This document shows, piece after piece, positions 3,115 to 64,000 of a stretch of 64,000 nt of DNA (its first letter is position 1; every line of letters begins with the position of its first letter). Below the pieces are notes generated by a model. The model was not told the DNA's origin and searched no databases. It was given only the letters and a program-made list of their open reading frames with translations. Where the stretch lies: contig JBHLOG010000002.1 of the NCBI GenBank assembly GCA_048940765.1, positions 20,254 to 84,253 of the forward strand. Reading direction: 5' to 3'. The DNA comes from Promethearchaeota archaeon (lineage in GTDB: Archaea; Asgardarchaeota; Lokiarchaeia; Sigyniarchaeales; SOKP01). Position numbers and translations under genes: made by a program.

Positions 3115-5100
3115 ATGGAGTTAACACCAATAAAAATTTATGAAAATTTCATAAATGGAAAAGTAAGTAAAAATGAAACTCTAGATTTGTTAATTACTCT
3201 AATTGAAAATTTCGATGATGATCTAATTAGAAAAGAGAGTATTGATACTTTAAATAAAATCGATTTTAATCACTCAAAAATTTTTAAAACTCTAGAACAG
3301 ATATTAATCTCTGAACCGAATCAAGACTTACGGGCTTCTGCAGCTCAAGTAATAAAAAAAAAATTCATCAAAAGAGCTTTAAATCCATTTATTTGGGCTC
3401 TTCAGCATGAATCTTCGTATCAATGTCTAATTACAATAATTGAATCTTTGGATGAAATAAGAGATTTTAAAGTTATCTCAATATTATTGGATGAAATTAA
3501 AAAACTGTCTAATGAAGAAGCCTTTAATGAGATTATTCCCTCAACTACTAAAAATTTAGATGTGCAACCTTTTTATGAGAATTTGGTAGAAATACTCATT
3601 AATTTAATAAGCATTAAAAGATTAAGAAGTAAATTTGACAAAATTAAATATAAAATTGAAAACGGATCTGTAACTGAACTAGATTTTTCAAATGTAGATA
3701 AAAAAATCATTAATTGGCATGATAGGGAATTTTTTCAAGATTGTTCAGATATAATTGGAATAAAAAATTTAAAGTCTTTAAAGAAAATAGAATTTTTTAG
3801 ACTGGAATGGCTTTTGAAGAATGAATTCACTTTCAAAAGTGCAATTACTTTAATAGAAGTTCTGGAAAAGTTAAATAATAATACTGCTAAGAATGTTCTG
3901 GTAACTCAAATATATAAAATACCTGATAAAAATTTTTGTTCATCAATTAATGATCCATTAAAATTTCATCAGAGTATTGAAGGATTTTCAATTTCCAAAT
4001 TATCGGATATTCTAAGAAATTATTTAACTTTAGCATTTTTAAAAAAGAGATATCCTTCTATTGAATATAATATAGAGAAAGGAGAAATTATTTCAATTTG
4101 TATTGAGAATATAGCATTAACAACAGTGCCAGGCTTCATTAAATATTTTCAATCACTTCAATCATTAACATTAAAAGGATGTAGATTATGTGATCTTCCT
4201 GAATCAATAGGATCATTTGATCATTTAAGAAATTTAGATTTAAGAAACAACAATCTTAAAACGATCCCTAAGACAATTTCTTCTCTTAAATCTCTAAAAT
4301 TCTTAAATTTAAGTAATAACAAATTATATAAACTACCTTCTTCAATAGGAAATCTCTCTACTCTCCAAATTCTAAATTTAGAGACGAATAATCTAACCTC
4401 TTTTCCGAGATCGATTGGACATCTTACATCATTGAAACAACTCAATGCTAGTAAGAATAATTTTCAGAAAATTCCTTCATCAATAGGAGCTCTAAAATAT
4501 CTTAATTCATTAAATTTAAATTATAACAAATTAAAAAATCTGCCACATTCGATTGGATTACTCTATTCCCTTGAAAATCTTAATATAGATAATAATAATT
4601 TAGAAAAAATTCCAAACTCAATAAGTTCTATTTCATCGCTCAAAACTCTTAGTTTAGAAGATAATAAGCTTAAAAAGCTTCCAGAATTCATAGGTTTGCT
4701 TAAATCACTAGAAATTCTGAGGTTGGGTTGGAATAAAATAGAACAACTTCCTAATTCTATTGGTTCTTTAATTAAGATTAAATATTTACGTTTAACTAAT
4801 AATCAAATACAGGAATTTCCCGATTCAATATGCTCACTATCTTTTCTTGAATTCTTAGATGTTTCTCATAATAAATTAGAAGTTCTACCAGAAAAATTTG
4901 GTCAAATAACATCTCTTAGAATCCTTAATTTAAGTGATAATGAATTGAAAAAGATTCCCAACACAATTGGTTCGTTAAACTCTCTTGAAAAGTTAAATCT
5001 TATTGGAAATCAAATCTTTTATATTCCAAAATCAATAAAATTATTATCCTCTCTTGAAGAAATAAAGTTAGATGGAAATAAATTACTGTGTATACCTTAA
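3115..5100 (+). CDS. HEAT-repeat / leucine-rich-repeat (LRR) protein
   Basis: The N-terminus has HEAT/PBS-lyase-like repeats (DLIRKESIDTLNKI, DLRASAAQVI). The C-terminal half has about 14 tandem 23-aa LRRs (LxxLxxLxLxxNxLxxLPxSIGx). The last repeat continues in another frame (see findings). Confidence 0.85.
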   Translation: MELTPIKIYENFINGKVSKNETLDLLITLIENFDDDLIRKESIDTLNKIDFNHSKIFKTLEQILISEPNQDLRASAAQVIKKKFIKRALNPFIWALQHESSYQCLITIIESLDEIRDFKVISILLDEIKKLSNEEAFNEIIPSTTKNLDVQPFYENLVEILINLISIKRLRSKFDKIKYKIENGSVTELDFSNVDKKIINWHDREFFQDCSDIIGIKNLKSLKKIEFFRLEWLLKNEFTFKSAITLIEVLEKLNNNTAKNVLVTQIYKIPDKNFCSSINDPLKFHQSIEGFSISKLSDILRNYLTLAFLKKRYPSIEYNIEKGEIISICIENIALTTVPGFIKYFQSLQSLTLKGCRLCDLPESIGSFDHLRNLDLRNNNLKTIPKTISSLKSLKFLNLSNNKLYKLPSSIGNLSTLQILNLETNNLTSFPRSIGHLTSLKQLNASKNNFQKIPSSIGALKYLNSLNLNYNKLKNLPHSIGLLYSLENLNIDNNNLEKIPNSISSISSLKTLSLEDNKLKKLPEFIGLLKSLEILRLGWNKIEQLPNSIGSLIKIKYLRLTNNQIQEFPDSICSLSFLEFLDVSHNKLEVLPEKFGQITSLRILNLSDNELKKIPNTIGSLNSLEKLNLIGNQIFYIPKSIKLLSSLEEIKLDGNKLLCIP

Positions 5101-53720: not shown

Positions 53721-55184
53721 TTAAATATAAGTATGAATCAAATCTACAAGATTTTTAGAAAAATTAGGTAAATTCTCTTCTATTTTTTCAATTTCTAAAC
53801 TTTTCTCTAAAAATAATAACAAGTATAAATTATATTTTTCAACTGTTATTTTCTTAAAGATAACTTTTTTTGATTCATCAGCTATTCCAGAAGAAACGAT
53901 AAAATCTTGTTCTAATAGTTTATATTCTTTAAAATTTTTATAAAGTGATTGAAAGTGAGGTGCGCTAATTTCAAATACTTTTCCAGAAATTTCATTCTTA
54001 GAGAAACTAGATAATATGATTCCATTTTCATTTAGCAACAAAATAGCTTCGGAATTTGTTTTTTTAGCAAATTTTTTTAATTGATTCCTAAATAATTCTC
54101 GATTAGGACTTAATTGAGAAAGACCAAAAGAATATGCAGAAATAAGGCTCCAATGATCAAAGATACTTGTTTGAAAGATTTTTATAAAAAATCTGTCAGA
54201 ATTCTTTTTAATCTCATCTGCAATTATTTCTAAATTTTTAAAAATTTCTTCATTTCCTTTTAAATCAGGATCAAACTTGTTTAAGCTTACGATAATCGGA
54301 GGAAATTCCTCTAATTCTATTAACGAAGTTAAAATCCTTCTAAGTAAATCAAGGGCATCATTTATCCTTTCTACATCTTGAATATCAATAAAGAAAAATA
54401 ATAAATCTATATTATACAAATATACTTTACTTTGTTCAAGAAATCGTTCTCGATATTGCTTTTGTCCGCCTAAATCCCAAATTGATATCAAAGAATTTTG
54501 TTCTTCAAAAATTTTCTCCTCTGATCTCTCAACTCCTTTAGTCGGTAAAGATTTAATGATTTCAGAATATTTTCTTCTTATTCCATGTAAAAAGCTCGTC
54601 TTACCTGCTTTATCGAGTCCAGTAAGAAGAATTTTAATTTGTCTTCTTGTAGAAAAAGGATCTTTTAATTCTTTAGTGAATTCAAATAATTCTTCTTTTA
54701 AGTTATCAATAATTTTCACTTTCTCATTTAGATCTTTAGAATTTTGGATTTCAATAGCTGTTCTATCAATTATTACTCTCAGATATTTCATATTTTGATA
54801 GAAAAAGACTTTATCATCTTCATCAATTAATACCGTAATAGTAGCAGCTAACGCCTTTCCACGAGCCCCAACATCAGGAATGAGAAAAAAATAAGTTAAT
54901 CCATTTAATTTTAAATCGGGGAAAGGTAATATTCCAAAATAATTAACTCCTTCTGTTCCTGTACCATCTTGATATGTTGCATCTCCCATTAATAAACTAA
55001 TTGTTTTCATAGCAATTAAAAGTCCAGCACTCTCATTTAAATCCTTAGGCCAAAAAACTTTAGGGCTTGGTCCGTTTTCATCAAAAATACTTAATACAAC
55101 GACTTTTATAATATCAGTTTTGAGTTCGTTTAATTCTTTTTCAATTGGGTTATCTTTTTCTGGATCAGATTTTAACTTTGGCAA
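53721..55184 (-). CDS. Three-domain small GTPase: longin/uDENN-like N-domain, Arf/Sar-like G domain, roadblock-like C-domain
   Basis: G1 is LLTGLDKAGKTS, G3 is WDLGGQ, G4 is NKFD. The N-domain is VVVLSIFDENGPSPKVFWP...GILPFPD...LTYFFLI. The C-domain is EAILLLNENGIILSSFS. Confidence 0.8.
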   Translation of the reverse strand: MPKLKSDPEKDNPIEKELNELKTDIIKVVVLSIFDENGPSPKVFWPKDLNESAGLLIAMKTISLLMGDATYQDGTGTEGVNYFGILPFPDLKLNGLTYFFLIPDVGARGKALAATITVLIDEDDKVFFYQNMKYLRVIIDRTAIEIQNSKDLNEKVKIIDNLKEELFEFTKELKDPFSTRRQIKILLTGLDKAGKTSFLHGIRRKYSEIIKSLPTKGVERSEEKIFEEQNSLISIWDLGGQKQYRERFLEQSKVYLYNIDLLFFFIDIQDVERINDALDLLRRILTSLIELEEFPPIIVSLNKFDPDLKGNEEIFKNLEIIADEIKKNSDRFFIKIFQTSIFDHWSLISAYSFGLSQLSPNRELFRNQLKKFAKKTNSEAILLLNENGIILSSFSKNEISGKVFEISAPHFQSLYKNFKEYKLLEQDFIVSSGIADESKKVIFKKITVEKYNLYLLLFLEKSLEIEKIEENLPNFSKNLVDLIHTYI

Positions 55185-57150: not shown

Positions 57151-57444
57151 AATTATCGTGTAGTAGTATTAATACTTAAATTTGTAATATTCACACTTAA
57201 TAATAAAATCTGAGAGACTTAAAAAAAAAATTATTAATACATTAAATTCAATAATTTGTCCTTAAAGAGAAGAATTAAGAACTAGTTTTTATTTTCAAAA
57301 TCAAATTTTTATTTTGTCGTCTATTGTAATTGATCTTAATGAAATTTTACACATTCTAACATAATTCTTTAATTATATAAAATAATCTTTAGAATTCTTC
57401 TAGTCTCTTTGTTTTATTTTAATATCATTTATTTGTATAAAATT

Positions 57445-58239
57445 ATGGAAATACAAACTGAATCATCATTAAAACAATTTTTTAGTGAAATATATCATAT
57501 CCTAAGAGAAACCAACACAAATGTCATTGATATTTGGCTAGAAATCTCAGAAATCCATTTTTTAAAACAATTTAATAATTCTGAATTAAGGAATTTTATT
57601 GAAAATTTCAATTTCATTTCTCTTCAAAAAGGAAATTATCAATACTATATAATTATAAATAAGATCGTGTTTATTGTAGAAACTATTAACATATTACAAC
57701 TTGATATAAGACAAATATCCGAAATTTTGAATTATGATGGATTTGAAGCCCTTATCAAAGAAATTCTTTCAAAAAATAATTATATCACTATTAAAAATTT
57801 TAGATTCTCTGATAATTCAAATTTTAGATATAAAACATTTCAAAAAAGGTATGAAATTGATATTATTGGAATTTATTCTAAATATATATTACTTATTGAT
57901 GCAAAACAATGGAAAAACAAAAACTCCTTTAACTCGATTAATAAAGCAGCAGATTTGCAATATAATAGAGCAATTGCTTTAAAAAAAAATCCAGAAATTT
58001 TTTCGAAATTAATTCAAACATTATTGGGATCAAAGATTAAGTTATATAAACGACTTCCATTCATCTTAATCCCAATTATCGTTACTTTAGAAGATAATGA
58101 TATCAAAATAAATAGCAATCAAATTCCTCTTGTTTCAATTTATGAATTAAATTCTTTTTTACACGAATTGCATAATAATTTGAAATTCTTTAGAACTCTT
58201 CAAGTTAATAAAGTAGTTATCCAAAGAAGCATAATATGA
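57445..58239 (+). CDS. PD-(D/E)xK nuclease-fold protein (Mrr/NERD-like)
   Basis: GFEALIKEILSKNNY...YEIDIIG...ILLIDAKQW fits a D...(D/E)xK core. ATG 57445 is preferred over the upstream alternative start. Confidence 0.5.
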   Translation: MEIQTESSLKQFFSEIYHILRETNTNVIDIWLEISEIHFLKQFNNSELRNFIENFNFISLQKGNYQYYIIINKIVFIVETINILQLDIRQISEILNYDGFEALIKEILSKNNYITIKNFRFSDNSNFRYKTFQKRYEIDIIGIYSKYILLIDAKQWKNKNSFNSINKAADLQYNRAIALKKNPEIFSKLIQTLLGSKIKLYKRLPFILIPIIVTLEDNDIKINSNQIPLVSIYELNSFLHELHNNLKFFRTLQVNKVVIQRSII

Positions 58240-58264: not shown

Positions 58265-59284
58265 TTAAGACTTTTTATCCTCTCCTTCAAAATATTCTTT
58301 TAATTGCTTTTTTACTATATTAATAGCAAAAGAAATTATTCCACTCTTAAATTTGGGGTGGGAAAATAAAATTAAAATCATATCCTTAGTACGTGGATCT
58401 TCTTTACCTATAGGAGCAAGATCTAATACTCCCTCTGATCCACGAACAGAAATGGCTTTTAGGTGACCTGCTTCTAATCCTTCTATTATATCTCCTCCAA
58501 TCATTGAAAGGTTCATACCAATTGTTGCAAATAGAGAATTAGAAATCCTTCCTGATATTGCTGATGCCAATATGGTACCATCTGTCTTTATAATAGCTGA
58601 TGCTTCAATATTTAAGTCTAATGTAAGTAAACGCTTTAAAATTTCATTCATACTGGAAGGAGGAATTGCTTCTTTTGGTTCTTTTTTTTGTTCGGCTTTA
58701 ACTTTTGGAATTTCCAATTTCTTTACAGATATCTTTTTTGAAAGAAAACTAAGTACTTCTGTCATATCTTTTTCTAATCTTTCTTGTTTTGATCTTGAAA
58801 CATCACTTTTTTGAGCTTCTGGTGGAATGGATGTTAAAGGAATTTCTTGCTTTTTAGCTACTCCCTCAGATATCGAACTTTTAAGTTCACTTAATGCATC
58901 TTTAATAGCAACATTCGATCTAGGCGGCGGAGAGGGAAAAGCTCTAGATCCTTTATATGGTTGAGGAGTAATTTCTTGAAGAACTTCTAATTTTTTTTTT
59001 TCTTTTTCTTTTTGTCGATCATTAGAAGTTTCTAGATCGGTATCTTCAATCAAAGAATCGGGAATCTCTTGTAATTCAAGATCCATTTTTTCTTTTTGTT
59101 GCTTATCAGGAGATGGTTTAACTGGCTCTTCAATTGAACTTTTTTTTTTCTTCTTTTCTTTACCAATTTTTGAACTTCTTATTCGTGAAGTTTTAGAAGT
59201 TAACGGTAATAAAGCCCCACATTTCCTGCAAATATGAGTCGTGGCTTCATTATTAGTTGCACCACAATTACTGCATATTATCAT
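58265..59284 (-). CDS. Zn-ribbon + Lys/Glu-rich linker + Roadblock/LC7 (MglB-like) domain protein
   Basis: N-terminus CSNCGATNNEATTHICRKCGA. C-terminus LDLNIEASAIIKTDGTILASAISGRISNSLFATIGMNLSMIGGDIIEGLEAGHLKAISVRGSEGVLDLAPIG. Confidence 0.7.
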   Translation of the reverse strand: MIICSNCGATNNEATTHICRKCGALLPLTSKTSRIRSSKIGKEKKKKKSSIEEPVKPSPDKQQKEKMDLELQEIPDSLIEDTDLETSNDRQKEKEKKKLEVLQEITPQPYKGSRAFPSPPPRSNVAIKDALSELKSSISEGVAKKQEIPLTSIPPEAQKSDVSRSKQERLEKDMTEVLSFLSKKISVKKLEIPKVKAEQKKEPKEAIPPSSMNEILKRLLTLDLNIEASAIIKTDGTILASAISGRISNSLFATIGMNLSMIGGDIIEGLEAGHLKAISVRGSEGVLDLAPIGKEDPRTKDMILILFSHPKFKSGIISFAINIVKKQLKEYFEGEDKKS

Positions 59285-59471
59285 AATTTATTTTATATTT
59301 TTGAATCGTAAATCTTTCAACTAATAAATTTAATCGGATAATTTGATTTAAAGACAAATTTTTAGTTCTTTTTGTATACAATATAAATAATAATCTATTT
59401 TTATTAATGTTGGTACTAATAAAAGAAAGGTTTAAAATTTTTAAAACCCAATTAAATTTGCTCAAATTTGC

Positions 59472-60443
59472 TTATTTATAAATAATTTCTCTTAATAAAT
59501 TCGCAAAAGATTCAAGATCTTCCTTATGAAAAACTGGATCATCTTTAACAAGTATTAAATAGTATGGTGTTGCTTCTCTTTTTAACATTATTTGTTTAAA
59601 TATAAAATTTTTCCCGAATTTCTGAATAAGCATCTTATCCTCGTATTTTTCTTCTATTACGCCTGCATATTGCATGTGATCATGAAGTGTGAGAAAATAC
59701 GGACAGGAAGCCGTCAAAAGATGTTTGGTTTCATCATCTTTATAATAAGATCCAATTATTAATGAATTGTCATCAATTACAACAACACCTTCAGAATTTA
59801 CTTTTTTAGCAAACTCTATGATCGTTTTTTCTATCAATTCTGATTTTGGATAAAGACTTAAGAGAATTTCAGACATAGCTGCAATGAGCGAAGAAAAATC
59901 ATAAATGGATGTTTCATAATAATACAAATCTTTATAATCAGTAGCTCTTAATTTGTCTTTTAAATCTATTACAATAGCTTTCATTTCATTTTGAGCACTT
60001 CTTTTTAGAGCGGGATCATATTTATGGAGAAATACATATATTGGTGGTTTAATATCTAATTTTTTGAATTGTTCTATGACATCCTTGAAATAACTTATTG
60101 CCTCAGGAAGTCTCGGTTTGTTTTGAACATCAATAACATAAATTGCTACTTCTGTTCCCTCAAAATATTTACCGGGATTTTTTAGATAGGCTATTCGGTA
60201 AGCTAATTGCCCCCCTAAATCCCATTCTGAGATTTCTTTACCCAGAAAATCGAATATTCTTCTCTGAGCTCCTCTTGTGGGAGATAATATAGCAATTTTA
60301 GAAAATTCCCTTTGAAGTGATAAAATAATGCTTGTTTTACCTGCATCGTCGAGTCCTGTAAAGAGTAGCTTATTAGGAGTTACCTCTACTTCTGGTTCTT
60401 CTTTTTTTAAGTATTGAATAGACTGTTTGAGATCTTTTTCCAA
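59472..60443 (-). CDS. Small GTPase with a C-terminal roadblock-like domain (Rag/Gtr-like architecture)
   Basis: G1 is LFTGLDDAGKTS, G3 is WDLGGQ, G4 is HKYD. The C-terminal ~110 aa (VNSEGVVVIDDNSLIIGSYYKDD...YYLILVKDD) is roadblock-like. Confidence 0.8.
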   Translation of the reverse strand: MEKDLKQSIQYLKKEEPEVEVTPNKLLFTGLDDAGKTSIILSLQREFSKIAILSPTRGAQRRIFDFLGKEISEWDLGGQLAYRIAYLKNPGKYFEGTEVAIYVIDVQNKPRLPEAISYFKDVIEQFKKLDIKPPIYVFLHKYDPALKRSAQNEMKAIVIDLKDKLRATDYKDLYYYETSIYDFSSLIAAMSEILLSLYPKSELIEKTIIEFAKKVNSEGVVVIDDNSLIIGSYYKDDETKHLLTASCPYFLTLHDHMQYAGVIEEKYEDKMLIQKFGKNFIFKQIMLKREATPYYLILVKDDPVFHKEDLESFANLLREIIYK

Positions 60444-60638
60444 ATAAATTTCACCTAAAAATTGATAGAAGTAATTGATATATAAATATATTCTTATTAA
60501 GATAAAAAATTATATCATTCTTTATTTAGCTTTTGCATAACAAACAATTTTGTAAAGATGATTAGAATAAAGCATAAAATTTAAGATTGTTTATCTAAAA
60601 CCCAAAGGATTATTTACCTTTTTGAGATGACAGTGTAT

Positions 60639-61208
60639 TTAGAACTTGTTATTATAAGCCGATTCTTTCTTGTTTTTATTTTTTTTTAGTAGTTCCATTA
60701 TTTTTTCGATTGCTTCTTGTGGAGTTTTGACACCATAAATCTTATCATTTCTTCGATCATCGAGTTTTTGATTAGCAATTTTTGAGGACCAGCCATCAAC
60801 ATTTGTCAATGCAATGATTGGCTTTTCATATATCCAAGCAAAAGAAATCTCCGATAAGGTACCTGCCTTACCTGCTATAGCTAAGCACACATCACCCGCT
60901 AACACAACAACAATATTTCTAGCTTGAGAAAAAGGACATGGAATAACCAAGTCAATATATTTATTTGCAGCTGATTTTTCTACAAATGGAATTATTCCAA
61001 TGGTAAAACCTCCCTTTTCCTTTGCTCCTTTACATACAGCTTCCATAACACCCGAAAGTCCTCCACATGCTATAGCAAAATTATTTTTGGCTATCAATCT
61101 ACCAATTTCAATCGTCTTTTCTTTCGTTTCTTTATCAATCTCACTAGCGCCAATTACGGAAATAACTCCATTGTAAATTTTTTTAAAATCCAAGTCCATA
61201 TTAATCAT
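60639..61208 (-). CDS. TIGR00725/LOG-like Rossmann-fold protein
   Basis: ISVIGAS...ACGGLSGVMEAVCKGAKEKGGFTIGIIP...ARNIVVVLAGDVCLAIAGKAGTLSEI. Confidence 0.65.
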   Translation of the reverse strand: MINMDLDFKKIYNGVISVIGASEIDKETKEKTIEIGRLIAKNNFAIACGGLSGVMEAVCKGAKEKGGFTIGIIPFVEKSAANKYIDLVIPCPFSQARNIVVVLAGDVCLAIAGKAGTLSEISFAWIYEKPIIALTNVDGWSSKIANQKLDDRRNDKIYGVKTPQEAIEKIMELLKKNKNKKESAYNNKF

Positions 61209-61388
61209 CTCTAAAATCTATTCGATTCTAATAGTCTTATTAAATCAAATTTATAAAAAATTCCGAAATTTATTAAATTATAATTATTATTATTGTTTCT
61301 TAATAAAAAATACTTATAAGAAAAAAATAAAAAAAAACCACTAATATTAATCATATTTAATAAGATTGAATTTGAAGTGAACATCTAA

Positions 61389-62030
61389 ATGAATGAATCT
61401 CAGGATAATAAAGAATCAAATAATGATTCAGAACCAATTAAAGAAATAGAAGAAAGGACTGAAAGTGCTTTTAAAGCAAAATTGAAAGATAAACTGAGTA
61501 GTAGTAAAAAAAGTTTAGGTAAATTTGCTACAAAAGTAAAACAAAAAGTAGATGAAAGTAAAGAGAAAGCAAAACTCAAATTAGAAGATAGAAAAGAGAA
61601 AAAAGAACTAGAAAAGGAGGAAAAAGCGACTAAAAAACAGGCTGAGAGAGAAGCTAAAGAGAAAGCTGAAAAAGAAGCCAAAGAAAAGGCTGAAAGAGAA
61701 GCTAAAGAAAGAGAAATGAGAAAATTGGAAGAAAAAAAAGCAAGAGAAAGAGCTGAGAGAGAAGCTAAAGAGAAAGCTGAAAAAGAAGCTAAGGAAAAAG
61801 CTGAGAGAGAAGCTAAAGAGAAAGCTGAAAAAGAAGCTAAGGAAAAAGCTGAGAGAGAAGCTAGAGAAAGAGAAATAAAAGAAGCAGATAAGAAACTAGT
61901 CCAAGTACTTGCAGAGCAAGAAGCTATGGAAAATGAAATAAAAGCAAGAAGAATCATTTGTCCAATGTGCGGAAAATTGAATAGTGGCGGTCGAACAACT
62001 TGTTCAGCTTGTTATTCACCTCTTAATTAA
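61389..62030 (+). CDS. Lys/Glu-repeat (AEREAKEKAEKEAKEK) protein with a C-terminal Zn ribbon
   Basis: A charged single-helix-like repeat region is encoded by tandem DNA repeats. The C-terminus is CPMCGKLNSGGRTTCSACYSP. Confidence 0.65.
   Translation: MNESQDNKESNNDSEPIKEIEERTESAFKAKLKDKLSSSKKSLGKFATKVKQKVDESKEKAKLKLEDRKEKKELEKEEKATKKQAEREAKEKAEKEAKEKAEREAKEREMRKLEEKKARERAEREAKEKAEKEAKEKAEREAKEKAEKEAKEKAEREAREREIKEADKKLVQVLAEQEAMENEIKARRIICPMCGKLNSGGRTTCSACYSPLN
61641..61883 (+). repeat. Tandem/higher-order coding repeat (48-bp unit)
   Basis: Two identical adjacent 48-bp copies at 61752-61799 and 61800-61847, and a diverged copy at 61641-61688. Each block is followed by a related 36-bp unit (61689-61724; 61848-61883). 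Confidence 0.85.
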
Positions 62031-62098
62031 ATTAACGATTTAATTCAAGTTCCTATATTATATTTCATAAATTTATGGAATCTAATTTTAAATTTCTT

Positions 62099-63061
62099 TT
62101 AAAATCTAAGTACATCAAGGGAATTCTTCCCATCATTTATTTTTAAAAGATTTTTTTCTTTTATAATTATCCCTATAATTTGAGCATTTAATCCGTATTT
62201 AGTAAATATATCTAATACTTTTTTACAATTTTTTTCAGGGACTGTTAAAATATAAGATGTAGTCAAATACATTTTTATATAAGTATCTAAAGAATAATCT
62301 TTTTCAATTAATCGAGGAGGAATATTAATTTGATTAATGTTAACATCCGCTCCTACTTCAGAGAATTTGATTAATTGTAATATGGTCCCAAATATCCCTC
62401 CATTAGAGATATCTTTAGAAGAATTAGCTAACTGTAATTTAGCAATCTCATTTATGGATTTTCTTTTATTCAAAACTTCTTCTGAAGTCTTAAAAGTAAC
62501 AGTATCCCAATATAAATTACTTGCTTTTCCGACTTTTCCATCAGAATCTATAGCTAAAATTATATAATCATTAACTTGTGCATTTTTTGCAGAAATATAA
62601 TGTTCTCTTTCAATTTCTCCAATCATAGTGGAACTTAGCTCATAATAATCCCCTCTAGGATTTGTATGTCCTCTCACGATTGGTACATTAAACTTCCTAG
62701 ATCCTTCACATACACCATCTATGATTTGCTTTCCAATTTCCTCTTCTTTATACGATATAATTAAACTTGCTGCTAAAGGGAATCCACCACAGCAATAAAT
62801 GTCATCAACTCCAACTAATATTGCACTAAAACCAGCTCCAAAAGGAAAATTCTCTACAAAACTAGTTTTAATTCTATCTGTAGTAATCAGAATAAAGTTT
62901 TTTTCATTTATTATCGCTGCTGAATCTTCTCCCATATCTGAGAAGATTTTTTGACTTTTAAACGAATTCTTCTCTATGAATTCGATTATTGGACTAATAT
63001 CTTTTTTTTCAATAATATTTTGATTGCTAATAATAGTCTCAGCAATTTTTTTGAGAAACAT
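62099..63061 (-). CDS. PurM/ThiL/HypE-superfamily (AIR synthase-related) protein
   Basis: DMGEDSAAII...ILITTDRI...GVDDIYCCGGFPLA is an N-domain pattern. 320 aa. No N-terminal Cys/Sec loop of SelD was seen. Confidence 0.6.
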   Translation of the reverse strand: MFLKKIAETIISNQNIIEKKDISPIIEFIEKNSFKSQKIFSDMGEDSAAIINEKNFILITTDRIKTSFVENFPFGAGFSAILVGVDDIYCCGGFPLAASLIISYKEEEIGKQIIDGVCEGSRKFNVPIVRGHTNPRGDYYELSSTMIGEIEREHYISAKNAQVNDYIILAIDSDGKVGKASNLYWDTVTFKTSEEVLNKRKSINEIAKLQLANSSKDISNGGIFGTILQLIKFSEVGADVNINQINIPPRLIEKDYSLDTYIKMYLTTSYILTVPEKNCKKVLDIFTKYGLNAQIIGIIIKEKNLLKINDGKNSLDVLRF

Positions 63062-63146: not shown

Positions 63147-64000
63147 ATGGAAGAATTTATTGAAAATTCAATTGTAAAAGGATATGTGTTAAGCATTTAT
63201 GGAGAAATGGGTCCCCAACCCATTTATATGTTCCCTAATTATGTTAGTGATAAAGAATTTAGTGAGATTAGTAAGGAACGAGAAGAAAGAAAACTTTTAA
63301 CTTTAACTTATAGAGATGTAACACAGATTTCTATCAAAAATTTGAGTTTATTTATTAGTGATAAGATAATCAGTGAAGAGAAAAATCTTGAAAAGATTCA
63401 ATATTTTGCAATATTACCATATCCTGATTTTAAGACAACTTCACTTACTTACTTTCATTTTGCTAGAACAAAATCATCAAATAATCCTATTCCAACAGCT
63501 TTTTCAATTTTAGTTGAGGAAAAAAGCCGAAGTTTTTTATATAATAATATAAATAGATTAAAACCGTTAATTATCGGCTTTTTTAATGAATTTGATAATT
63601 CAATAAAAGAAAGTTTTCCCCCATTTGAAAATATTGAACATTATTTTCATGACCTTTTATTAAAGCTTTTTGAAATAGAAAAAAGTCCTTCAACACCAAT
63701 CACTTCACATAGAAAATTAAAGATACTCTTCTCTGGTCTTGATGATTCGGGTAAAACAAGTTTCCTCCTAAGTGTTGATAAACAATATAGTAAATTGATA
63801 GGATTAAAACCAACAACTGGTGCAAGTATCACATCTATTGAAGCGTTAGGCGCTACAATATTTTTGTGGGATTTAGGTGGTCAACGAAAATTTCGGGAAA
63901 AATATATCAGTAAAGCAGAGATTTATTTATATGAAGCCGACTTAATGTTCTATTTTATTGATATTAAAAATAAAAATAGATTTGAAGAAAGTATAGAATA
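63147..64000 (+). CDS. Longin/uDENN-like N-domain + Arf-like GTPase, 3' end beyond the window (not in the ORF track)
   Basis: ATG 63147 opens a frame that runs to the window end. The N-domain is VKGYVLSIYGEMGPQPIYMFP...YFAILPYPDF...LTYFHF. G1 is ILFSGLDDSGKTS and G3 is WDLGGQ. It is a paralogue of 53721-55184. Confidence 0.75.
   Translation, partial: MEEFIENSIVKGYVLSIYGEMGPQPIYMFPNYVSDKEFSEISKEREERKLLTLTYRDVTQISIKNLSLFISDKIISEEKNLEKIQYFAILPYPDFKTTSLTYFHFARTKSSNNPIPTAFSILVEEKSRSFLYNNINRLKPLIIGFFNEFDNSIKESFPPFENIEHYFHDLLLKLFEIEKSPSTPITSHRKLKILFSGLDDSGKTSFLLSVDKQYSKLIGLKPTTGASITSIEALGATIFLWDLGGQRKFREKYISKAEIYLYEADLMFYFIDIKNKNRFEESIE

Follow-up and report, generated by a model that had tools for sequence, protein, structure and literature searches.

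A LokiRagO-type GTPase gene and its zinc-ribbon roadblock neighbour in a family of Lokiarchaeia

A GTPase and a zinc-ribbon roadblock protein side by side

In this study, we analysed a stretch of 64,000 nucleotides (nt) from contig JBHLOG010000002.1 of a Promethearchaeota archaeon (hereafter the window; G+C 23-35%; source genome 4.04 Mb in 280 contigs), and in particular two genes that lie next to each other on its reverse strand. One encodes a Rag-like GTPase with a C-terminal roadblock domain (59472-60443, 323 amino acids (aa), with a TTG start preceded by AGGTGA), and the other, 187 nt downstream (spacer 59285-59471), encodes a protein composed of a zinc ribbon, a linker and a roadblock domain (58265-59284, 339 aa), hereafter the partner. 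Both open reading frames (ORFs) had been placed at these positions and on this strand by a first-pass annotation made from the sequence, and the ORF listing agrees. Database searches returned 705 homologues of the GTPase (76-98% identity for the top 120) and 479 of the partner, labelled Lokiarchaeota or Promethearchaeota, thus neither ORF is a chance frame, and both are real genes kept across hundreds of Lokiarchaeial (Promethearchaeota) genomes. The source genome is that of a Lokiarchaeial Asgard archaeon rich in small GTPases, with 49 matches to the Gtr1_RagA profile and approximately 100 P-loop GTPase ORFs recovered by an iterated profile.

The GTPase consists of a G domain (residues ~22-197; 59853-60380, reverse strand) and a C-terminal roadblock-type domain (residues ~201-322; 59478-59843, reverse strand). 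Its motif set comprises the P-loop GLDDAGKTS (residues 30-38), switch II DLGGQ within WDLGGQ (74-79) and the G4 motif HKYD (140-143), all read correctly in the first pass, and then TSIYD; the limits of the G domain were drawn from these motifs and from the elements of an AlphaFold2 (AF2) model, strand E24-30 to helix H183-195. All fold models used here are AF2 models of single chains, compared with known structures by Foldseek. The GTPase model (predicted local distance difference test, pLDDT, 80.7) shows the G domain and then an alpha-beta-beta-alpha-beta-beta-beta-alpha domain (H201-214, E219-223, E229-234, H237-259, E271-275, E278-285, E294-300, H307-322), also supported by Foldseek and profile alignment, and the C-terminal domain searched alone gave no Pfam match. 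Pfam Gtr1_RagA (PF04670) matched residues 25-239 with 93.4 bits (cut-off 22) and took in positions 1-218 of the 232 in the profile, and Pfam Arf matched at 57.6 bits over residues 24-151 only. The P-loop is of the Arf type according to the alignment with Arl3, and HKYD and TSIYD, conserved in an alignment of the orthologues and paralogues of the GTPase (alignment A2), are motifs that we tentatively take to be Rag-type, as in RagA and Gtr1. Since the Arf and Rag scores come with different coverage, we read the G domain, as far as its sequence goes, as a mosaic in which the N-terminal two thirds (P-loop and switches) are Arf-like and the remainder (HKYD, TSIYD), together with the appended domain, is Rag-like.

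Comparison with the PDB points to one solved protein above all. Used as a profile, A2 matched 8yl2 at 3e-101 and then a second Asgard protein, 8zla, followed by human RagA (114 bits), Gtr1 (~98), RagC (78) and Arl3 (76), and the alignment to Gtr1 spans positions 10-297, ending inside the C-terminal domain. The single GTPase sequence matched 8yl2 at E 9.6e-86 over residues 13-321, with Arl3 (51.7 bits) scoring about the same as Gtr1 (49.8) and RagA (46.5), which tempers the assignment to Rag. The entry 8YL2, released on 2025-09-10, is titled 'homo-tetrameric RagA-like small GTPase from Asgard Lokiarchaeota (LokiRagO) in complex with GTP', and a literature search for 8YL2 or LokiRagO found no relevant paper. 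It is also the top Foldseek match of the GTPase model, with 46-47% identity over the full length and template modelling (TM) scores of 0.80-0.91. Conversely, when the 8YL2 sequence was searched in the source genome, the window GTPase was the best match, and another genome (G285) encodes a near-identical copy of 8YL2 behind genes for an AIR-synthase-related (AIRS) and a SLOG protein, with a convergent NERD-like gene, as in the window. Given this reciprocal best hit and the G285 context, the window GTPase is the positional orthologue of the solved protein, that is, the LokiRagO orthologue of the window's family (f1). A subfamily tree with an unresolved base places both in the same subfamily. The two proteins thus share the two-domain architecture, much of their sequence and the AIRS-SLOG-GTPase order with the convergent NERD-like gene; they differ in that a zinc-ribbon-roadblock gene lies downstream of the window GTPase and is absent from that position in the LokiRagO lineage.

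The order of a G domain followed by a roadblock domain, compared in the first-pass annotation with eukaryotic Rag/Gtr GTPases, is upheld by the full-length model, which aligns with RagA, Gtr1 and LokiRagO. Foldseek gave TM scores of 0.70-0.81 over 299-314 columns against full-length RagA and Gtr1, and TM scores on the query of 0.54-0.76 over ~300 columns against RagA, RagC, Gtr1 and Gtr2. Such a GTPase-roadblock architecture has already been catalogued for MK-D1 (Tran et al. 2024, PMC10933270), and in published trees an Asgard 'ArfL' group falls near Rag (PMC11914678) and eukaryotic Rags are nested among Asgard RagGtr sequences (bioRxiv 10.1101/2024.02.28.582541). The GTPase, which has both the profile match and the architecture of Rag/Gtr, is a further member of a described and crystallised Asgard family.

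Elsewhere in the source genome there are three close paralogues of the GTPase, two in tandem at C32:26610-28700 and one at C242:3848-4819, with 41-49% identity in A2; the tandem pair carries DLGGH in place of DLGGQ in switch II. The strongest Gtr1_RagA match of the genome (139 bits) is a separate gene, C100:9112-10311, whose product combines HKID and TSVFDESLFTAWS motifs with a C-terminal domain detected by the roadblock profile; of all the genes in this genome, it is probably the one most closely related to eukaryotic Rag.

The partner, single-copy in the source genome, starts with a C4 zinc ribbon (residues 1-27; 59204-59284, reverse strand), in which the CxxC...CxxC pattern seen in the first pass corresponds to C4-x2-C7 ... 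C19-x2-C22. Pfam Zn_Ribbon_1 matched at E 0.0015, under its cut-off; in an alignment of 40 orthologues (A1), C7, C19 and C22 are conserved in at least 90% of sequences, the consensus being MIICxNCG...CRKCGALLP followed by a basic tract, and AF2 gave the ribbon a pLDDT of 75-81 (about 77). The linker (residues 28-205; 58670-59203, reverse strand) is rich in K, E and P, as had been annotated, and indeed reaches approximately residue 205. It contains a K-rich tract and two to three L-x-L-Q-E-I-P motifs, then a helix, ISDAFxELK, and a near-invariant amphipathic helix, LEKDMTEVLSFLSKKISVKKL, at 161-184, beyond which lies the highly conserved C-terminal domain; the invariant columns of the linker in A1 are L170, E171, D173, M174, V177, L178, F180, L181, S182 and K184. 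In the AF2 model of the linker, residues 32-98 and 145-158 are disordered, and helices span 125-143 and 161-184. We considered L-x-L-Q-E-I-P as a genome-wide docking motif and set the idea aside, as its other carriers are leucine-rich repeat proteins with the same letters in their repeat consensus, probably a coincidence. The partner has no lipidation motif and no homology to LAMTOR1.

The C-terminal domain of the partner (residues ~209-338; 58271-58660, reverse strand) had been annotated as a clear Roadblock/LC7 domain, and this holds for the fold and fails for the sequence. The last 128 aa searched alone matched Pfam Robl_LC7 (PF03259) at 13.2 bits and E 0.078, below the cut-off of 23, the whole protein gave no Robl_LC7 match at E 0.01, and the sequence of the domain reached only a sub-threshold E of 0.018 against the PDB. 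The AF2 model (pLDDT ~90), on the other hand, contains the complete Roadblock/LC7 fold (H212-222, E226-233, E238-243, H249-272, E278-281, E286-291, E302-308, H316-338), and Foldseek found 127 PDB matches at E <= 0.001, led by roadblock proteins, MglB and LAMTOR2/3; the E values run from 3.5e-7 at the top to ~1e-5 at rank 50, with target TM scores of 0.51-0.75 over the 50 listed matches and of 0.62-0.75 for Asgard roadblocks (7F8M, 9JUE, 7YH1), MglB (6HJM, 6H5B) and LAMTOR2/3. When a roadblock profile was iterated on the proteins of the source genome, from a seed that included the partner's orthologues, it recovered the partner at 5e-21. In sequence, the partner is closest within this genome to single-domain roadblocks of 123-147 aa and not to the C-terminal domain of the GTPase. 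The partner is a roadblock protein that carries an unusual extension at its N-terminus.

Conservation of the pair and of the surrounding block

We surveyed 301 Asgard genomes, 68 of them from the window's family, f1. Within this family, the full-length partner and the GTPase orthologue were each found in 64 of the 68 genomes, and in nearly all of those sampled the two genes share a contig and a strand with the GTPase upstream. Outside f1, the full-length partner was found in one genome of a sister family (G165), and a shortened form occurs in a sister order. In a species-level set of 80 loci from GTDB species representatives, 76 of which have room for the neighbour test, the GTPase lies upstream of the partner on the same strand in 74, at a median gap of 192 nt and with spacings of 85-360 nt across loci. 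The neighbourhood on which the first-pass annotation had built is thus kept in relatives, and the pair persists amid changed flanks in G165 and in the genera g5, g6 and g8. Some of these loci have features of their own. Two tandem RagO-like GTPase genes lie upstream of the partner in g6 (L013, 4004-6033) and g5 (L014, 5114-7329), and their products could pair as a Rag-style heterodimer. L014 also has a gene for a 270-aa membrane protein inserted ahead of the roadblock gene. In G165, the GTPase frame (L018, ~3990-4932) lacks an ATG, GTG or TTG codon anywhere from the preceding stop to the P-loop, possibly due to an unusual start codon or a sequencing error.

The sequences around the two genes suggest how they may be expressed. 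Upstream of the GTPase start (60448-60497, reverse strand) lies a promoter-like block, ATAAGAATATATTTATAT, with a Shine-Dalgarno-like AGGTGAAAT; in 13 aligned upstream regions from two genera, the AAGAATATATTTATAT block and AGGTGAAAT are near-invariant and the rest is unalignable. Just past the GTPase stop (59418-59449, reverse strand), hairpin arms GGGUUUUAAAA and UUUUAAACC are followed by the T-rich UUUCUUUUAUU, from sequence and folding a possible transcript end, and T-rich tracts occupy the same position in relatives. Downstream of this tract, a conserved intergenic block TACYAACATTAATAAAAT...ATTTTTATTTATAT (59372-59420, reverse strand) is the sole stretch of the spacer alignable between genera g1 and g4, and is putatively a promoter or regulatory site of the zinc-ribbon-roadblock gene; the window holds one exact copy of it and 8 matches at <=3 mismatches, against 1.6 expected. 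We also considered a structured RNA in the spacer and rejected it, since the Rfam search of the 187 nt, block included, gave no notable match and the spacer is not unusually structured overall (folding z = -0.29); a 65-aa ORF (59268-59465) was discarded as a gene because it sits in the poorly conserved spacer. With a promoter-like block for each gene and a T-rich tract behind the GTPase, co-transcription is disfavoured, and the genes look like two transcription units side by side rather than a tight operon, the promoters being putative.

Pairing of the GTPase with the partner, in the manner of either Ragulator or MglB, is plausible, and with both modes taken together our analysis puts it at close to evenly balanced. 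The putative separate promoters are among the points that weigh against it. G285, which belongs to the LokiRagO lineage, and three genomes from genus g10 (presumed MK-D1-like) have the GTPase orthologue, and the partner was detected nowhere in them, which means that the GTPase does not need the partner; at two loci (L062 and L104), other genes and not the GTPase lie upstream of the partner. Moreover, the flanking adjacencies in f1 are conserved about as well as the pair itself: the partner and the NERD-like gene adjoin in 72/76 loci, the NERD-like gene and NrdD in 62/65, and the SLOG gene and the GTPase in 46/63. As the whole block is syntenic in f1, the adjacency of the pair is not clearly above the local background, and much of it may be inherited synteny.

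Taken to its end, this would mean that no direct interaction is involved, the block AIRS-SLOG-GTPase-roadblock with its convergent NERD-like gene and NrdD having stayed unshuffled in one Lokiarchaeial family and the roadblock serving another GTPase or process. Such a history would fit the well-kept flanks, the promoter-like block before each gene, the GTPases without a partner in family f2 and the partners without an upstream GTPase in L062, L104 and the sister order, and the many GTPase genes of the genome leave ample choice of other clients. It is harder to square with the survival of the pair where its neighbours have changed, in G165, g5, g6 and g8. Only 3 of the 28 unfused roadblock ORFs of the source genome adjoin a GTPase ORF, in agreement with the remark, made for MK-D1, that the genes for Asgard GTPases and roadblocks are as a rule not linked (Tran et al. 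2024, PMC10933270); the general lack of linkage favours the synteny explanation, and the rarity of such adjacency speaks against it. On balance we consider inherited synteny without interaction somewhat unlikely, though a serious rival. Besides the partner, the unfused roadblock ORFs that abut GTPase ORFs are at C197:348-1550 and C23:660-1885, with gaps of 7 and 24 nt, and these two pairs are candidates for compact MglB/MglA-like operons.

The neighbour that has kept company with roadblock genes most widely is the NERD-like gene (57409-58239, forward strand; probable true start ATG 57445; in relatives, loci L111-L114, L019 and L024), which converges with the partner. Its product matched Pfam NERD at 23.3 bits against a cut-off of 22.1, has the conserved core YEID...IDAKxW of a PD-(D/E)xK-type nuclease fold and probably a winged-helix N-terminal domain. 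It is single-copy in the source genome and was found in 226 of the 301 Asgard genomes, nearly always as a single copy. In the sister order (families f3, f4 and f31), a gene for a 240-250-aa zinc-ribbon-roadblock protein lies directly downstream of the NERD-like gene on the same strand in 5/5 loci examined; no GTPase lies near this pair, and one has to go to other contigs for the closest GTPase-roadblock homologues. With NERD adjacency in two orders, the oldest neighbour of the partner is the NERD-like gene and not the GTPase, which again counts against a specific pairing with the GTPase.

It has therefore to be asked whether the zinc-ribbon-roadblock protein is mainly a partner of the NERD-like protein (winged helix-turn-helix plus PD-(D/E)xK), joined later by the GTPase; the ribbon and basic linker would then bind nucleic acid, or the roadblock would regulate or localise the nuclease-fold protein. 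The convergent arrangement in f1 and the tandem one in the sister order, the latter with no GTPase nearby, point this way, and chance adjacency is unlikely for a gene that is nearly always single-copy. However, the NERD-like gene has a much wider distribution than the roadblock partner and in G285 adjoins the LokiRagO-type GTPase with no roadblock gene, G165 has the GTPase and the partner with no NERD-like match, and PADLOC returned no defence-system match. We also know of no precedent for a roadblock-nuclease partnership, and we judge this explanation unlikely, though again a serious rival.

Upstream of the GTPase lies a gene for a SLOG cluster-4 protein (60639-61208, reverse strand; Pfam LDcluster4, E 6e-41), and the order AIRS-SLOG-GTPase (SLOG and AIRS genes at 60639-63061 in the window) is kept in families f1 and f2 (L001-L012, L023, L024). 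The SLOG-GTPase adjacency was counted over the 63 loci with room for it. Between the AIRS and SLOG genes, some loci and not others have an inserted gene, at 61389-62030 in the window, for a K/E-repeat protein whose C-terminal part is a zinc ribbon. We examined the SLOG/GTPase/roadblock/NERD block as a possible defence system and rejected this for the time being, as PADLOC gave only weak generic DprA/SLOG-type matches for the SLOG protein. Two more Rag-like GTPases with a C-terminal roadblock-type domain are encoded in the window at 53721-55184 (reverse strand) and 63147-64000 (forward strand); both have an extra N-terminal domain of ~180 aa with a weak match to the Folliculin family (E 0.011), and their orthologues flank the same block in L001, L004, L009, L010, L023 and L024.

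Likeness to Rag-Ragulator and MglA-MglB

Roadblock dimers are known to serve small GTPases as platforms or to regulate them, MglB-MglA and Ragulator-Rag being examples (PMC10933270), and the first-pass annotation had likened the pair to either system. The Rag side of that comparison stands, at least in the domain order; the MglA side is doubtful, since the G domain is not MglA-like and the spacing is unlike that of the tight MglBA operon.

A switch of the MglA/MglB type would have the roadblock dimer of the partner bind the G domain itself, as a GTPase-activating protein (GAP) or a guanine nucleotide exchange factor. As in Myxococcus and Thermus, a small GTPase gene stands beside a gene for a roadblock fold, the fold of the partner matches MglB (6hjm, 6h5b; E ~1e-6, target TM 0.64-0.75), and an allosteric GAP could act on the GTPase, which retains the catalytic Gln of DLGGQ. 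Nevertheless, the best PDB matches of the A2 profile are Rag, Gtr and Arl, with no MglA in the top 60, and MglA is a single-domain GTPase, whereas the window GTPase carries a roadblock domain of its own. MglB likewise lacks the N-terminal extension of ~200 residues, with zinc ribbon and linker, that makes the partner a protein of 339 aa, and the compact mglBA operon contrasts with the order found here, GTPase and then roadblock, with a 187-nt spacer and a promoter-like element for each gene. We therefore regard a switch of this kind as distinctly improbable.

In structure, the C-terminal domain of the partner is best matched by stand-alone Asgard roadblocks (7F8M from Thor; 7YH1, 9JUE and 9JQ8 from MK-D1). 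They consist of this domain alone, whereas the partner adds a zinc ribbon, a basic tract, L-x-L-Q-E-I-P repeats and an amphipathic helix, and, unlike them, it occurs only in one family and in scattered relatives.

The likeness to eukaryotic Rag/Gtr includes the order of the two domains, the Gtr1_RagA match and the full-length structural alignment, and the likeness to Ragulator and EGO lies in a partner whose roadblock resembles LAMTOR2/3 and is encoded next door to the GTPase; the long, disordered, basic arm of the partner loosely recalls LAMTOR1. There are clear differences as well. Rag/Gtr proteins form heterodimers of A and C types, whereas the window locus has one GTPase gene and the solved homologue is a homotetramer, and the window G domain is Arf-like in its N-terminal half (GLDxAGKT). 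Ragulator differs from the partner, which is one chain with a zinc ribbon and whose interaction with the GTPase is putative. Finally, we know of no TOR pathway in archaea.

The preferred reading is nonetheless that the roadblock of the partner docks, in the manner of Ragulator, on the roadblock platform of the GTPase, a tentative proposal drawn from the conserved adjacency and from analogy and, in our estimate, somewhat short of even. The GTPase would self-associate through its roadblock domain, as the title of 8YL2 suggests for its homologue, and the roadblock of the partner would dimerise and dock on the platform so formed, like LAMTOR2/3 on the C-terminal domains of Rag. The basic linker, the L-x-L-Q-E-I-P motifs and the zinc ribbon may then serve as an arm, a tether or an adaptor, that reaches a surface or other proteins, perhaps the adjacent NERD-like protein among them. 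A bolder form of this docking proposal would make the partner a single-chain archaeal counterpart of Ragulator, with a LAMTOR1-like arm and a LAMTOR2/3-like roadblock on a homo-oligomeric Rag-like GTPase, possibly coupling the NERD-like protein; in our view this form is unlikely.

What the pair would mean for Asgard archaea

The locus is not a new kind of system. The adjacency of GTPase and partner in one Lokiarchaeial family and the link between roadblock and NERD-like genes across two orders are not described in the literature that we found, and represent an incremental addition. Asgard genomes encode dozens of small GTPases and roadblock/longin proteins, and as their genes are generally unlinked (Tran et al. 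2024, PMC10933270), matching each regulator to its GTPase has not been possible so far. The locus is one of few family-wide adjacencies of a Rag-like GTPase and a roadblock gene, and with a crystal structure available for the GTPase orthologue, this adjacency makes a concrete binding and GTPase-assay experiment feasible. If the pairing fails, the older link of the roadblock protein to a conserved nuclease-fold protein becomes the lead. If the pairing is true, however, it would provide a simple prokaryotic analogue of Rag-Ragulator, and, if the partner were in fact a single-chain Ragulator, a prokaryotic module of the Rag-Ragulator type that predates eukaryotes.

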